A DNA stretch of 64,000 nt, taken from positions 112,444 to 176,443 of IMG/VR virus record IMGVR_UViG_3300028591_000003, one strand, 5' to 3'. Under the pieces are notes generated by a model. The model had not been told where the DNA came from and did no database searches. It worked only from the letters and a program-made list of their open reading frames with translations. A program made the translations under genes and the position numbers. Below, piece by piece: positions 6,701 to 14,127 of the stretch; the stretch's first letter is position 1, and each line of letters begins with the position of its first letter. Source of the DNA: a virus. Its lineage: Duplodnaviria; Caudoviricetes.

Positions 6701-7243
6701 ATGAAAATTGCTTCATTTACTTCTAATATCCCCACAATGGGTGATACTAGAACTTATGAGGACTTTTATAAGTACCTTGGATTTAAACCTCAACGTCTTG
6801 GTGTTGTATCAAGAATGTATGATGATTTAACAGCTTCATTCCTTACTGAATCTTTAAAGAATATTTTCTATCAAGATGCTAAAGGAAGCGGTAACAAATA
6901 TCAAAGTATTAATGCTTTAGCATATGACTGGGATATAACTAGCAACTATATCAAAAGAATTGAATTTGCAGCAGTACCTGAAGGTGATGGTGCAGGTGGT
7001 ACAGAAATTGTAATGGCTTTCAGAGAAAGATATTACGAAAAGTATGATACCTTCAAAATTGAAAATTCTGGTCAATAGTGTATGGTAGTAGGTCGTCCTG
7101 TAAGAAAGGGAGATAATTATTGGGAAGTAGTAGTAAGATTAGTTGATAATAACTATGATACTGTTCTTGATGTAAGTGCTTGTCAACCTGGCGACAAAAC
7201 ACGTTGGATTAGTGCTCATATGCCCGAATTACACGAGGAGGGT
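6701..7243 (+). CDS. Major capsid protein, exon 1
   Basis: ORF pieces 6701-7078 and 7082- join through one TAG and end ...PELHEEG at the 5' splice site. Joined to exon 2 this gives 476 aa, a size and position that fit a crAss-like MCP. Confidence 0.85.
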
Positions 7244-8231
7244 TTAGAAATCCTAGCCATTGGTATGGCTCTCCTCCGCTTAGTTGCTTAAGTGTAAAAT
7301 TAAATAAATATTCTTAATTGCTGGAAAGCTAAGTCTTTTAAGATACGCTAATCAGCAGCGAAGCCTAAGATAACATGAACTCATAGAGAGATGCTTAGGA
7401 ACGTTCATCGACTAGTCTGAATAGACGTAGGAGAAGAATACTCCGAAATGGAATAAATCTAAAATTTAAATATGGAAAAATATATTGTATATCAAACAAC
7501 TAATAAAATTAATAATAAAATTTATATTGGAGTTCATTGTACTAATAATCCTGATGGATTTGATGGTTATATAGGTTGTGGAGTAAGAATTACTCAACCT
7601 TGTACTTATATGAATCCTAAAACTCCTTTTCAATATGCTGTTAAAAAATATGGAACAGGAGCCTTTATTAGGACAACGTTAGCTAAATTTGATACAGAAG
7701 AAGAAGCTTTTGAATTAGAGAAAAAAATTGTTAATGAAGAATTTTTAAGACGAGCAGATGTATATAATTTAGTTGAAGGTGGAAAATTTCATATAACACA
7801 TCAAACTCCAATATATATGTATGACTTAGAAGGAAATTTTGAAATGGAATTTAAAGGGATTAATGAAGCAGTAAGATATGTAAATCCTGACCATAATCAA
7901 AGAGGAGGAAGTCATATAATAAGAGCAATAAATCAAGGTCATCAATATCATGGACACCAATTTTCTTATGAAAAGGTTGAAAAATTAAAAAATTTAACTA
8001 AACATAGAAAAATGTCTACTGTTGAAAGACCTTATGTTGGAGGAAAAGTTGGAAGATATGATGATGATGGAAATCTCTTAGAGACATTTGAAACAATGAC
8101 AGATTGTGTTAAAGCTGGATATAAAAATGCTAAATTAGTAGCTTTAGGACAAAGAGAACATTGTAAAGGATTCGTATTTAAATATTTAGATTAAGATATA
8201 GTCAGGCGACGTGGAAACACGATCGGTTATG
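7244..8231 (+). mobile_element. Group I self-splicing intron (IA-like) in the major capsid gene
   Basis: Exon ends in U and intron ends in G. P1: GAGGAGGGU pairs with GCUCUCCUC (7268-7276). Core elements: P AATTGCTGGAAA 7316-7327, Q AATCAGCAG 7350-7358, R GTTCATCGACTA 7403-7414, S AAGATATAGTC 8193-8203. P9 CGTG-GAAA-CACG 8210-8221. Splicing restores the frame (EEG|YTKW). Confidence 0.93.
7472..8194 (+). CDS. Intron-encoded GIY-YIG homing endonuclease with two NUMOD1-like repeats
   Basis: YIVYQTTNKINNKIYIGVH...GYIGCG...EEEAFELE...YN. Repeats PIYMYDLEGNFEMEF and VGRYDDDGNLLETF. Lies in the P8 loop. Confidence 0.92.
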   Translation: MEKYIVYQTTNKINNKIYIGVHCTNNPDGFDGYIGCGVRITQPCTYMNPKTPFQYAVKKYGTGAFIRTTLAKFDTEEEAFELEKKIVNEEFLRRADVYNLVEGGKFHITHQTPIYMYDLEGNFEMEFKGINEAVRYVNPDHNQRGGSHIIRAINQGHQYHGHQFSYEKVEKLKNLTKHRKMSTVERPYVGGKVGRYDDDGNLLETFETMTDCVKAGYKNAKLVALGQREHCKGFVFKYLD

Positions 8232-9119
8232 TATACAAAATGGCAATCTAATGTAGAAAAACACCGTGGTTATATACAGACCCACAGATTTGACGCTTCT
8301 TATTCAGCACAGTATGCTGCATTAGAAGATGTATTTATTAAAATTTCAGAAGGTAAAGATTAGGGTAGTCTAACTGAAACTATTTATAAAATGGATACAG
8401 TTTAGAAGAACTTACTTGAAACCTTCCTTACAGGACGTAACCAAGCTTTACTTTTCTCTAAAGGAAACGTAAATCCTCAAACAGAAAAGCCTACTATAGT
8501 TGATCCTGATACTAATAGACCTATTTACATTTCAGATGGACTTATTCCTCAAGTAGAAGCTTATGCAAGTAAATATGCTTACAATAAACTTACTATAAAT
8601 GTATTTAAGACTGCTTTACAAGCACTTAATGAAAAAGCAGAAAAGCCTACTGGAAACCACTATATGTTTATTGTCAACGAAAAAGCTTGGTATGACCTAC
8701 AAGATGTATTAGATACATACTTAGCACAATATCATACTGATGGAACTTATCTTTGGTCTGCTAAGGCAGGAGATTATGTTTCTGTAGGTGCTAAAGGATT
8801 CGATACATATAATTACGGTGGAAATTCTATTAGCTTTAAAGTTGATAGAACATTCTCTCGTGAATATGGTTATCAAAAAGGTTATATGTTAGCATTAGAT
8901 TTAACAGCAGACAAGACTTCTGCTCAACCTCCTATTGCATTATTTACTTTAAAGGGTGGAGATATGATCTCTAACAAATATATTGGTGTAGGTGGATTGA
9001 ACGGATTATCTTCTGGTGAAGTTTCTTCACCTGTAGCTGGTTCTAAACTAATTATGTGGGGATATTCAAGCTTAGCTGTATTTAATCCTTACAGATCGTA
9101 TGTTATGAGAGAGCTTTGA
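8232..9119 (+). CDS. Major capsid protein, exon 2
   Basis: YTKWQSNVEKHRGYIQTHRFDASYS..., same frame as ORF 8664-9119, with two TAG codons and a TGA stop. Confidence 0.85.
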
Positions 9120-11148: not shown

Positions 11149-12222
11149 ATGTTTAATTTCACAACTCAAACAGTTTACAATTAGATTTCTACTACAGGTG
11201 CAAATAAAAACTTGTATGTAGCAGCAAATGGAAAAAAGCCAGCTATAAGAGTTGGTAATACTAGATTTGATGCAGATAGTATTTTAGATATTCAAGTTAA
11301 AAATCCTACAGTAGAAAATCTAGCTAAAGTAACTTTTGATTTATCTAAGGTTCTTATTCCATAGAATTCTACTGATAATGAAATAACAGCAAGAATTGTT
11401 CTTTATGTTGGACTTTCTATGAATAGTCAAGATGCTTTCTATGCAAATGACTTTGTATATAAAGGAAAACCTTTATTCATCGAATTTCCCGTTAAGAAAA
11501 CTGATACTGTTGATTTACTAGCAAAGAGAGTAAAAAATATCGCAGATAAGTATCTACTTGTTATGATGGGTACTGAAAAGATTCTTGATGTAACTTTTGA
11601 AGGTACTGCTGCTTCTGGTGATGATCCTGCTACAGGTACAATTACATTTACAGGTGTAAATGGTTATCAATAGATTAAGAAAGCTATTCTTCAGAAATAT
11701 GATCCTGAAGCTAAAACAGTAGATTGCTGCTCTAATCAAGGTGAATATATTGATGTAATTACCGGTGTTCCTGTAGTTTATACTACAGATGCTGATGGTG
11801 TAGTAACTACAAGTAATAATAAGATCGATGCTGATGGCAATACAGTTGCTCTTGAAGAAAATGAAGTAGCAATTACTCCAGGTCTTGAAGCATTTGGTGA
11901 TTACAATTGGTTAATCCATAACCTAAGACTTCCAACTGCTGCAAATTATTATCCCTGGTCTCCTGCAAATAGAATGGGAGAAATTCCTGTTCCTGGACAA
12001 CAATATACTTAGATTATTATTCGTATGATTAAGGAACGTGATGGAATCATGGGAGAAATTGTTGGTGCTAGAGGTACTTCTGTAACTACTCATGTTCTTT
12101 ATGTTGCTGGAAAACCAACAGCAGGTGCTGCTAAGACCGTATTAGACGCTTTCAAAGCTCTTGATGGTGTAACAGCAAAAATTAAAACTGATGCTGATAC
12201 TGCTCTTCAAAGCCCTTTTTAA
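11149..12222 (+). CDS. Structural protein, putative auxiliary capsid protein (357 aa, TAG=Gln)
   Basis: MFNFTTQTVYN..., same frame as ORFs 11419 and 12025. Assignment by synteny between ring-protein genes. Confidence 0.7.
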
Positions 12223-12254
12223 ACGGGGGAGGTGTAACCCCCTCACCAACACCT
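12213..12254 (+). promoter_or_regulatory. Programmed -1 ribosomal frameshift signal (slippery heptamer plus H-type pseudoknot)
   Basis: C-CCT-TTT (12213-12219) in X-XXY-YYZ phase directly before TAA, then a 5-nt spacer. Stem 1 GGGGG/CCCCC (12225-12229/12238-12242), stem 2 AGGTGT/ACACCT (12230-12235/12249-12254). Confidence 0.8.
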
Positions 12255-12593
12255 ACGCCTATCCCGGTAGAGGGTGACGTACAAATCTTTGACGACCCCG
12301 AATGCACACGATACGCTGACGGCTCTGTCGCAACGGTTTATGCTCGAATTAATGTGCCGTGGGGATTTAATGGAGGTTGGGCTGTAGGAAGTACACAGCA
12401 AGCAGGCACTCTCCTGGAAGCATTTGGACCAACTACGGCAAATCCAAACGACCCTTACGCAATTTCAGTGTGGAATTATTGGGTCTCAAACGATTTTGAC
12501 ACACCTTTTGAGGCAGGTCAAATCGTTGAACTTCAACCAAATCCGAATGCTGACCCCATCGCTAACCCGAACGTCATCTTTACCAAACCGTAA
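12219..12593 (+). CDS. -1 frame C-terminal extension (124 aa) of the 11149 protein: Gly/Pro/Thr linker plus small beta-rich domain
   Basis: LNGGGVTPSPTPTPIPVEGDVQIFDDPEC...VIFTKP-TAA. Open from the slip site with no in-frame ATG, and includes ORF 12354-12593. Confidence 0.75.
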   Translation, partial: LNGGGVTPSPTPTPIPVEGDVQIFDDPECTRYADGSVATVYARINVPWGFNGGWAVGSTQQAGTLLEAFGPTTANPNDPYAISVWNYWVSNDFDTPFEAGQIVELQPNPNADPIANPNVIFTKP

Positions 12594-12674
12594 TGACACA
12601 CTCAAGTCGTCATCTAGAAAAAGCAATCGCCGCGGCGTAAACAAATTTTAGTAGATACTTATAATTATTTTAAT

Positions 12675-12714
12675 AAGCTAGACCAGGCCTAAAAAGGTCT
12701 AGTCTAGCTTTTTT
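12675..12714 (+). terminator. Rho-independent terminator
   Basis: AAGCTAGAC-CAGGCCT-AAAA-AGGTCTA-GTCTAGCTT followed by TTTT. Confidence 0.8.
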
Positions 12715-12721
12715 ATTTTAT

Positions 12722-13435
12722 ATGGCTTGGACATCAATTAAACGGCTAGCTGATGCTGTATTTAATGATATAGTTAGTGGACTTCGTGGTTATCACTAGA
12801 ATATGTCAATGTCAAAAGAACAATTAGAAGAAGAAATTGTTCAAATGAGGCTAGCAGTTATTAAAGAATATATGTTAAAAGGAATACTTCCGATAGACGA
12901 TTTATTAATGTCTATTAATTGTGTTCCAGTAGATTGTGATACTTTAGACAAATGTAAATGTGGAGGATTAGTTTGTGGAGAACCTACAGCACATTTTCAA
13001 ATACCTTAGATACTATTTGATTATGGTTTAGGAAAATCTATAAAATATATAGGATCTTCTGATAAAAGACATTCTTTTTTAGTATATACTAAACCTATAG
13101 ATAAAATAAATACATATCAAAAATATAGAAAAAGAGGAAAAAATAAACCTTGGGTTTATGTTGATGTAACTCCAAATTCTGAAGGATTATTAGATTGTTA
13201 TATTTTTGGAGCACCTCTTATTAAGCAAGTTTCTGTTGTAGCTATATTTAAAGATCCTAGATAGTTAGAAGAATTTCAGTGTAATTGTGACGGAAGTGAA
13301 GATAATTAGATGGATATTAATTTTAATTTTTTGGATATTATTATAAAAGATAGACTTACATAGCAAAAATTAAGATATTATCGTCAATATTAGGCTCCAA
13401 TTCTTCCTAACGATTAGACTTATAGCGCCGGATGA
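12722..13435 (+). CDS. Putative tail ring protein (237 aa, TAG=Gln)
   Basis: MAWTSIKRLADAVFND...AIFKDPR...PND(Q)TYSAG-TGA. The xIFxDP motif and position suggest a ring protein. Confidence 0.7.
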
Positions 13436-13437
13436 TT

Positions 13438-14127
13438 ATGAATTTAAATAATTTTCATTATATAGCAGTACTTCTAGATTAGTTTTATGGGTTAGAATTA
13501 GAAGATGAGGAATTAGAAGAAATGGGTTTAATGGGATGGGAATTAATCGGAAATAAAAATACTAAACTTTATCAATTTAGGACTTGTCCCGATTCTAATA
13601 ATTCAATAAAATTACCTTGTAATGCATCTTCTGTAGAATCCGTTACAACTTCTTATGAAGATTGGAAAAGAATTACAAACTATTCAGAAAACGGAGATCA
13701 AAGAACATCATTCATAGAAAATCATATAGAAGCAGAAAAAATTTACAGAAGTCCTTATTATATGTCTGGAAAATTAATTCCTTATGAATTAGTAGACGAT
13801 ACTTTATATTTTACTGGAAATTATGGTACACTGAATATCTTATATAAAGGTATTTTAGTTGACGAAGAAGGTTTGCCAATGCTTTCAAATAAAGAAGCTA
13901 TGGCAATAGCTACTTATATCGCATATTATTTAAAATATAAAGAAGGTTTAAAAACAAATAATACAGGAATAATTAATCTTGCTAATAATTTAGAATAGAA
14001 ATGGCTTAAACAGTGTGATTAGGCAAGAGTAACTCCATTAAGTCAAAATGATATGAATGAAATACTAAACATAAAAGATAGTTGGAATCGTCACAATTAT
14101 GGTTTATCTTATAAACCTATACATTAA
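13438..14127 (+). CDS. Putative tail ring / tubular protein (229 aa, TAG=Gln)
   Basis: IKLPCN...ILYKGILVDEEGLP...AIATYI, open to TAA 14125-14127. Confidence 0.7.

Follow-up and report, generated by a model that had tools for sequence, protein, structure and literature searches.

A predicted −1 ribosomal frameshift at the end of an auxiliary capsid gene of a crAss-like phage, within a cassette of foreign origin

The window, the whole stretch of 64,000 nucleotides (nt) that was analysed, covers positions 112,444 to 176,443 of the viral record IMGVR_UViG_3300028591_000003 (Duplodnaviria; Caudoviricetes). It contains, at 11149-12222, a gene for a putative auxiliary capsid protein of a crAss-like phage, and the end of this gene is the subject of the present report. 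Comparison with other viral sequences makes it very probable that this gene of a Zeta-type phage undergoes a programmed −1 ribosomal frameshift, which would join a linker and an additional domain to its product of 357 amino acids (aa). The features of the gene end, numbered from the first letter of the window, are the following.

11149-12222, plus strand: auxiliary capsid gene in the zero frame, 357 aa (translation with TAG as Gln), homologue of gp36 of phicrAss001
12213-12219, plus strand: slippery heptamer C CCU UUU (X XXY YYZ), in phase with the 357-aa frame
12220-12222, plus strand: zero-frame stop UAA ('shifty stop'), directly 3' of the heptamer and forming the first 3 nt of the 5-nt spacer (12220-12224)
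12219-12590, plus strand: −1 frame extension, 124 codons, followed by TAA TGA at 12591-12596
12225-12266, plus strand: codons of a Gly3 and Pro/Thr linker, from the translation
12267-12590, plus strand: beta domain of about 108 aa, from the translation and an AlphaFold (AF2) model
12225-12242, plus strand: hairpin of stem 1, GGGGG (12225-12229) with CCCCC (12238-12242) and an 8-nt loop
12230-12254, plus strand: candidate stem 2 (pseudoknot), AGGTGT (12230-12235) with ACACCT (12249-12254)
12675-12716, plus strand: intrinsic terminator of the capsid operon, hairpin 12675-12710 and U-run, dG −21.7 kcal/mol

The zero frame ends with AGC CCT TTT TAA (12211-12222), and of the 33 genes on the plus strand of the window it is the only one whose last two codons fall in an X XXY YYZ heptamer that is in phase. 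This, like the database homologues of the domain encoded in the −1 frame, shows that the feature goes beyond chance. Its stop codon is TAA, so it is still functional in a phage in which TAG is recoded. The −1 frame contains no Met and no ATG, GTG or TTG before the conserved start of the domain; the predicted products are of 357 and 481 aa. No terminator is found between the zero-frame stop and 12593, the sole strong one being the hairpin at 12675-12710 (z −5.9; 0/200 shuffles), and the same terminator hairpin lies 3' of the gene in L002 and L004-L008. An earlier account made from the letters and their open reading frames (ORFs), here called the sequence-only reading, had described this gene end with its phased heptamer and 5-nt spacer, a −1 frame open for 124 codons and devoid of ATG, isoforms of 357 and 481 aa and a terminator placed only after the extension. 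All of these were found in their places, the lengths being confirmed by translation. Its expectation that standard annotation would miss the extension was also right. The 124-codon frame offers no usable start.

The hairpin of stem 1 starts 5 nt after the heptamer. Across nine sequences with a common 5-8-5 geometry, 100% of its cells are paired, against 41-60% in slid controls, and in two of its five pairs both partners have changed in a compensatory way (G-C to C-G or A-U), by substitutions that are synonymous in the Gly/Arg and Thr-Pro codons. Sequence comparison thus supports this hairpin. Stem 2 is paired in 65% of the cells of the same nine sequences; a core of 3-4 pairs is kept and a single compensatory change (U-A to C-G, in L026) is seen. 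Formation of the full 6-bp stem 2 is doubtful, as it would leave 0 nt in loop 1 and seems sterically implausible, so the pseudoknot is best regarded as possible. The two interlocking stems claimed by the sequence-only reading therefore both exist as complementary segments and the first of them covaries, but the second is only partly supported; in the same way, the conservation that it had proposed to look for holds for the slip site, the stop and the hairpin but not for the complete pseudoknot. In the two-tRNA model of slippage, the onset of stem 1, 11 nt past the first base of the P-site codon, matches the entrance of the mRNA channel. Since the related heptamers G GAU UUY (see below) re-pair poorly in the P site, a part may be played by a slip of tRNA-Phe alone while the stop occupies the A site. 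Both routes yield the same protein.

The zero-frame gene contains four in-frame TAG codons, read as Gln in the translation. It has homologues in seven IMG/VR loci and one GenBank record (48-58% identity) and no family in Pfam or PHROGs. An AF2 model built on an alignment of 8 homologues reaches a predicted local distance difference test (pLDDT) score of 74. In a Foldseek search of the PDB, its best match is chain a of 7qof (333 aa, E 5.7e-7, probability 1.0, with a template modelling score of only 0.35), followed by several FliD cap structures. The entry 7qof is the phicrAss001 capsid. The gp36 protein of phicrAss001 has 333 residues and folds as a PH-like domain into which a FliD-like domain is inserted; each asymmetric unit contains nine copies of it beside nine major capsid proteins, with which the outer layer of the shell is jointly built (Bayfield et al., PMC10172136). 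The gene of the window sits in the head module, upstream of tail ring proteins. The fold match and the ring-gene neighbours support the view that its product is an auxiliary capsid protein of the gp36 type, predicted to lie in the outer layer; the sequence-only reading had already called it a putative auxiliary capsid protein, a label that the match to 7qof chain a bears out.

The extension encodes a domain of its own family. A HMMER search against 1.84 billion representatives retrieved 95 homologues at E<=1e-3 (51 at E<=1e-10), and the AF2 model, made from a 20-sequence alignment, is a confident seven-stranded all-beta structure (pLDDT 94.9, predicted template modelling score 0.85). The residues that are invariant in the family are kept in the extension of the window. 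Elsewhere, the domain forms the C-terminal part of in-frame proteins of about 440 aa (P0004, P0081 and P0087, DUF6266-like), behind a linker that is Gly-rich, then Pro/Thr-rich; it also occurs in tandem (P0003, P0008), beside leucine-rich repeats and other surface-type modules (P0010, P0015, P0020, P0066) and in ORF calls of about 117-130 aa that start within the linker. As in-frame fusions use the same type of linker, the fusion protein would be the functional form. The linker and extra domain announced by the sequence-only reading are thus real as far as homology and modelling go. The comparison of folds that it had recommended gave a mixed outcome: the model is confident, but it has no Foldseek match at E<=1e-3 in the PDB or BFVD and reaches a best Z of 3.2 in the wide mode of VIA-align, and the extension has no family in Pfam or PHROGs. 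In the absence of a fold match in these two databases, the label 'Ig-like' cannot be given. No other copy was retrieved by IMG/VR scans with the extension and with the small alignment, nor was the domain found in the GTDB species genomes or, by tblastn with the extension, in the phage GenBank collection.

The signal recurs in other viruses. The contigs compared were those behind the linker-started ORF calls and those behind the metagenome matches. The full layout, in which U UUY-stop is followed by a spacer of 5 nt, a hairpin of 5 bp with a loop of 8 nt, and a Gly/Pro-Thr linker, is found behind DUF6266-like genes in 8 further distinct sequences, and 2 more share the slip site and the stop, with a stem that is different or unclear, as is the case in L012 and L013. 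A −1 extension follows U UUY and a stop in L018, L019, L011, L031, L012, L013-17, L023/24, L025, L028 and L026. In every case the upstream gene ends with U, a Phe codon and a stop directly after it; this holds for 11/11 frameshifted copies, among which UAA, UAG and UGA all occur. The heptamers are distributed as follows.

C CCU UUU: the window and L018
A AAU UUU: L011, L031/32 and L012
G GGU UUU: L025, L028, L026 and L040
G GAU UUU: L019 and L013-17
G GAU UUC: L023/24

Two of these heptamers, G_GGU_UUU and, where a stop is nearby, G_GAU_UUU, have been documented as sites of −1 shifts (PMC5009743). The junction of the L013 type is identical in five independent assemblies. Conversely, control genes that end with Ile or Val (L035, L036, L038) are without T-run, hairpin and open −1 extension. 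This conservation of the signal and of the frame relation across homologues is the main evidence for the frameshift.

The DUF6266-like proteins encoded upstream of the signal belong to a family of at least 1,808 members, typically of about 329 aa, with a weak match to DUF6266. Among the 120 best members, 38 have Phe directly before the stop and most others end with Asp-Ile or Asp-Val; the same signal is probably used by hundreds of these genes. The contigs on which they lie also carry an integrase, a single-stranded DNA-binding protein (SSB) and a lysis enzyme and for the most part do not exceed about 7-10 kb; a bacterial contig of 142 kb has one copy integrated into it. A contig of 7,711 nt exists in two assembled versions that are permuted relative to each other and is therefore probably circular. 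These elements probably form a family of small temperate viruses, of which the DUF6266-like protein would probably be a capsid or surface protein. The genes accompanying it in L035-L039, L019, L025, L026 and L040 are those for a tyrosine integrase, an SSB, two further large ORFs and an amidase or lysozyme. Common ancestry of the DUF6266-like and crAss capsid genes was considered and rejected (hhalign probability 1%). A PDB sequence search with the DUF6266-like proteins gave no match and no mention of DUF6266 was found in the literature searched.

The cargo behind the linker varies. In L040 (2103-2823), the site G GGU UUU UGA, a hairpin and a Pro/Thr linker lead in the −1 frame into an unrelated cargo of 230 aa; other cargos stand in frame behind the same linker in P0157 and P0172. 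In L027 (150-571), the domain lies in the same frame as the DUF6266-like gene, behind a single TAG, which would be either read through or, in a TAG-recoded virus, decoded. There are thus three coexisting forms: the direct fusion, the −1 frameshift and the in-frame stop codon. A DNA pattern for the gene end, run against IMG/VR, retrieved only two chance matches, in unrelated GC-rich genes.

Within the crAss-like phages, the extension is a foreign insertion, part of which is hypervariable, two points that the sequence-only reading had not made.

12220-12638, plus strand: foreign GC-rich insert, with the recoding signal, the linker, the domain and a remnant of the donor 3' untranslated region (UTR) at 12597-12638
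12353-12592, plus strand: hypervariable core of the domain, compared with L018 781-1020 (48-67% nt identity, no gaps)

The GC content rises between 12100 and 12600 to 0.46-0.53 in the insert, against about 0.30 in the flanks. Rfam and tRNA (ARAGORN) scans of this GC-rich island gave no match, which ruled out the candidate explanation of an RNA gene. The extension is absent from 8/8 related crAss-like loci; in those relatives whose DNA continues past the gene end, the capsid stop comes 1-9 codons after a conserved Pro-Phe/Tyr and is followed at once by the terminator. A search of five related phage records, which include two complete genomes, gave no match to the domain profile, and the one distant DNA relative in the phage GenBank collection, MT835492, is without the insert. 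Homology to L019, the contig of an unrelated small virus, crosses the stop of the extension, continues over about 45 nt of non-coding DNA and breaks at 12638. At this point L019 has the 5' half of a terminator hairpin and the window resumes AT-rich sequence of the crAss type. The left junction of the insert falls inside the T-run. Because the homology includes the UTR, the cassette must have been copied, UTR included, from a donor of the L019 type, and because it was joined exactly at the slip site, the relation between zero and −1 frames of the donor was preserved. The pentamer TAAAC occurs at both junctions of the insert (12220-12224 and 12639-12643) and may reflect microhomology, a target-site duplication or chance. 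Comparison thus shows a portable foreign module that comprises the slip site, the stop, the hairpin, the linker, the domain and part of a 3' UTR.

A second crAss contig, L018, carries the same arrangement. Its identity to the window is of 97-100% in the 3' flank as well as along 650 nt of the capsid gene, and of 92-93% over the slip site and linker, and it falls in the core to the values given above. L018 nevertheless keeps the slip site, the stop, the hairpin, the frame, the full length of the ORF and the family-invariant residues. Such a contrast between flanks and core goes beyond point mutation, and therefore points to replacement of alleles by recombination between the conserved ends of the domain. 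The variability of the core is of a type seen in parts under diversifying selection, such as binding surfaces, and may have the same cause here. A diversity-generating retroelement was sought as its source and discarded, a 551-nt query matching only itself in the 176-kb genome and no RVT_1 match being found.

The expression of the gene may then be pictured in this way. Most ribosomes would end at the UAA at 12220-12222 and produce the 357-aa protein. A fraction of them would slip back one base on C CCU UUU, aided by the adjacent stop and by the hairpin, possibly a pseudoknot, 5 nt downstream, and would read 124 more codons to give a 481-aa subunit with a flexible Gly/Pro-Thr linker and the beta domain of about 108 aa. 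These subunits would make up a minority of the outer-layer capsid subunits and would display the tethered domain. Since gp36-type proteins occupy the outside of the capsid and are as numerous as the major capsid protein (1:1 ratio), the domain would be exposed on a subset of several hundred positions. It is probably a binding or adhesion module for a glycan or another surface ligand; its company of surface modules, its linker and its variability are the reasons for this proposal. Comparison shows the cassette itself to have come, by recombination, from small integrating viruses, in which it extends the unrelated DUF6266-like protein.

The exact join at the slip site, which keeps the frame relation of the donor, makes it improbable that the cassette is a silent passenger, left out of frame by chance after a recent illegitimate recombination and never translated, with the 357-aa protein as only product. 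An insert that is foreign and confined to one lineage, as indicated by its absence from the 8 related loci and five related phage records, is what such an event would also leave, and a random insertion would fall out of frame in two cases out of three. However, two crAss variants with different core alleles both have a frame that is open over its full length, together with slip site, stop and hairpin, the family-invariant residues are kept and the stop, TAA, is one that works in a TAG-recoded phage.

Expression of the domain without any ribosomal slippage, either from an internal start such as GTG 12354 or by stuttering of RNA polymerase on the T-run, has a slimmer chance still. Gene callers do propose GTG-started linker ORFs in relatives (P0002, P0005, P0007, P0009) and a 79-aa ORF in the window, but the linker GTG is not a conserved feature: the window, L019 and L025 lack it and have no start codon at all before the conserved start of the domain. 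Initiation at the first start codon of the window would yield a domain devoid of its first two strands, and the 79-aa product of GTG 12354 models poorly (pLDDT 0.47, ESM Atlas), so that the independent initiation named by the sequence-only reading as a possible refutation is disfavoured. As for stuttering, an extra U in the mRNA would yield the same protein, but L023/24 has only TTTC, on which stuttering is impossible. A run of five T is also shorter than the known runs of bacterial transcriptional slippage.

Least credible of all is an indel of sequencing or assembly in the T-run, by which a true genome with six T would encode a simple in-frame 481-aa fusion: homopolymer miscalls are common and in-frame fusions of the domain exist elsewhere (P0004, P0081, P0087), but the comparison with homologues finds the same five T in the independent metagenome contig L018 and the same frame relation in ten other distinct sequences from many assemblies, including L023/24 whose TTTC is no homopolymer, and the zero-frame stop is conserved beside the site.

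Several points weigh against a programmed frameshift followed by display. The known copies of the crAss type are two, the window and L018. Stem 2 is poorly conserved, as its 65% pairing indicates, and a 5-bp hairpin alone is a weak stimulator, whose G-rich and C-rich arms are partly a by-product of the Gly and Thr-Pro codons. Folded alone, the downstream RNA is no more stable than shuffled sequence (z about −1); as its fold energy is ordinary, support for the structure comes from sequence comparison and not from thermodynamics. In addition, the last residues of the capsid model are of low confidence, and the orientation of the C-terminus matters for display.

Frameshift-made C-terminal extensions of phage structural proteins are already well known. 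In gene 10A/10B of T7 and gene 10 of T3, a −1 frameshift occurs near the 3' end of the capsid gene (PMC5009743). As in these phages, the gene in the window would be that of a very abundant capsid protein, and the slip at its last codons would give a minor, longer subunit; both products are in the shell in T7/T3 and are predicted to be so here. Unlike in T7/T3, the gene concerned is an auxiliary gene of the gp36 type and not that of an HK97-fold major capsid protein, the site is a canonical heptamer with a stop directly after it, the extension is a complete domain of 108 aa on a long linker, and signal and domain together appear as a cassette that is transferred horizontally. Phage structural proteins may also bear Ig-like extensions at their C-terminus, which arise in frame or by frameshift, according to Fraser et al. 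(2006/2007) as related in PMC5009743. These extensions resemble the present case as modular accessory domains on head and tail proteins, spread by non-homologous recombination and presumed to provide weak adhesion, and the coexistence of direct fusion, frameshift and in-frame stop forms is a further likeness (PMC5009743). They differ from it in two respects: the domain of the window is without Pfam family and without Ig-like or other fold match, and its recoding signal is itself conserved and seems to travel with the module across unrelated genes instead of being improvised at each landing site.

Heptamers of the same kind are found in eukaryotic RNA viruses. Expression of NS1' in the Japanese encephalitis serogroup relies on C CCU UUU and a pseudoknot. 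We know of no test of these U-rich heptamers in bacteria or Bacteroidota. Pea enation mosaic virus uses G_GAU_UUU with a nearby stop (PMC5009743). These U-rich −1 sites and those described here have in common identical or near-identical heptamers, a short spacer, a downstream structure and a contribution of a nearby stop, whereas pea enation mosaic virus and the Japanese encephalitis serogroup are eukaryotic RNA viruses.

In the human and animal gut, no phages are more abundant than crassviruses, and how their capsids interact with mucus, with glycans of the host or with bacterial surfaces is for the most part an open question. The zero-frame protein shares with gp36 of phicrAss001 its fold (PH-like and FliD-like) and its genomic neighbourhood, but gp36 has no extension, and display in phicrAss001 is ensured by separate fibres docking in hexon pockets (PMC10172136). 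These head fibres, gp21/gp29, are thought to confer binding specificities on the capsid, and their homologues are missing from most crassvirus groups (PMC10172136). The frameshift extension may be an analogous solution. No report of a frameshift in a crassvirus capsid gene was found in the literature searched, and the sequence-only reading was likewise not aware of a description for this crAss-like gene. What appears new is thus the case of a crassvirus auxiliary capsid gene, together with an uncharacterised domain family and its allele-like core, as well as, judging from the sequences compared, a recoding signal that forms an integral part of a horizontally transferred module, common to two unrelated gene families and at least two cargos.

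A wider proposal can be made with some reserve, and seems reasonably probable: the mobile unit would be a 'recoding adapter' (U UUY-stop, 5-nt spacer, 5-bp/8-nt hairpin and Gly/Pro-Thr linker) with interchangeable display domains, which would move between unrelated viruses and give partial display on any capsid protein behind which it lands. It occurs in a crassvirus of 176 kb as well as in temperate viruses of about 7-10 kb, which fits this proposal, as do the occurrence of at least two unrelated cargo domains (that of L040 and that of the window type) and the exchange of the cargo core as alleles between near-identical phages. The phage's own genome has neither a paralogue of the extension domain nor a second adapter site. 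If the proposal is true, the frameshift signal is part of the mobile module and not a local repair of an out-of-frame landing, and frameshift signals may spread horizontally within domain cassettes. The frameshift at the auxiliary capsid gene predicts an isoform at the virion surface, with a specific junction peptide, that annotation misses; a sharp difference in the core between near-identical phages is what would be expected if a binding surface were being exchanged or were subject to diversifying selection. The arrangement would also be a compact natural adapter for partial display, and as such a possible phage-display tool in Bacteroidota phages.

The source record comprises 176,443 bases, has direct terminal repeats and is rated complete. 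Zeta group crAss-like phages have genomes of 145-192 kb (Yutin et al. 2021, PMC7886860), and the size of the record and its TAG recoding fit this group; the host is probably a member of the Bacteroidota. TAG is read as an amino acid in the late genes. In-frame TAG codons occur throughout the late genes (163-60687), for example 67 and 81 in ORFs of 3,106 aa and 3,837 aa. No tRNA gene is present in the 64-kb window, and any suppressor tRNA would therefore be encoded elsewhere in the genome or by the host. Downstream of the capsid operon lie the following genes.

12722-13435, plus strand: ring protein 2-like gene, weak CrAss_Ring_2 match (Pfam), at which crAss synteny resumes
13432-14127, plus strand: CrAss_Ring_1 ORF (Pfam match, E 9.2e-12)

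The N-terminus of the ring 2-like protein is conserved across all relatives. The ring 2 gene precedes that of ring 1, both coming directly after the auxiliary capsid gene. Upstream, the capsid region appears in the ORF list broken up into 6701-7291, 7472-8194 and 8106-9119.

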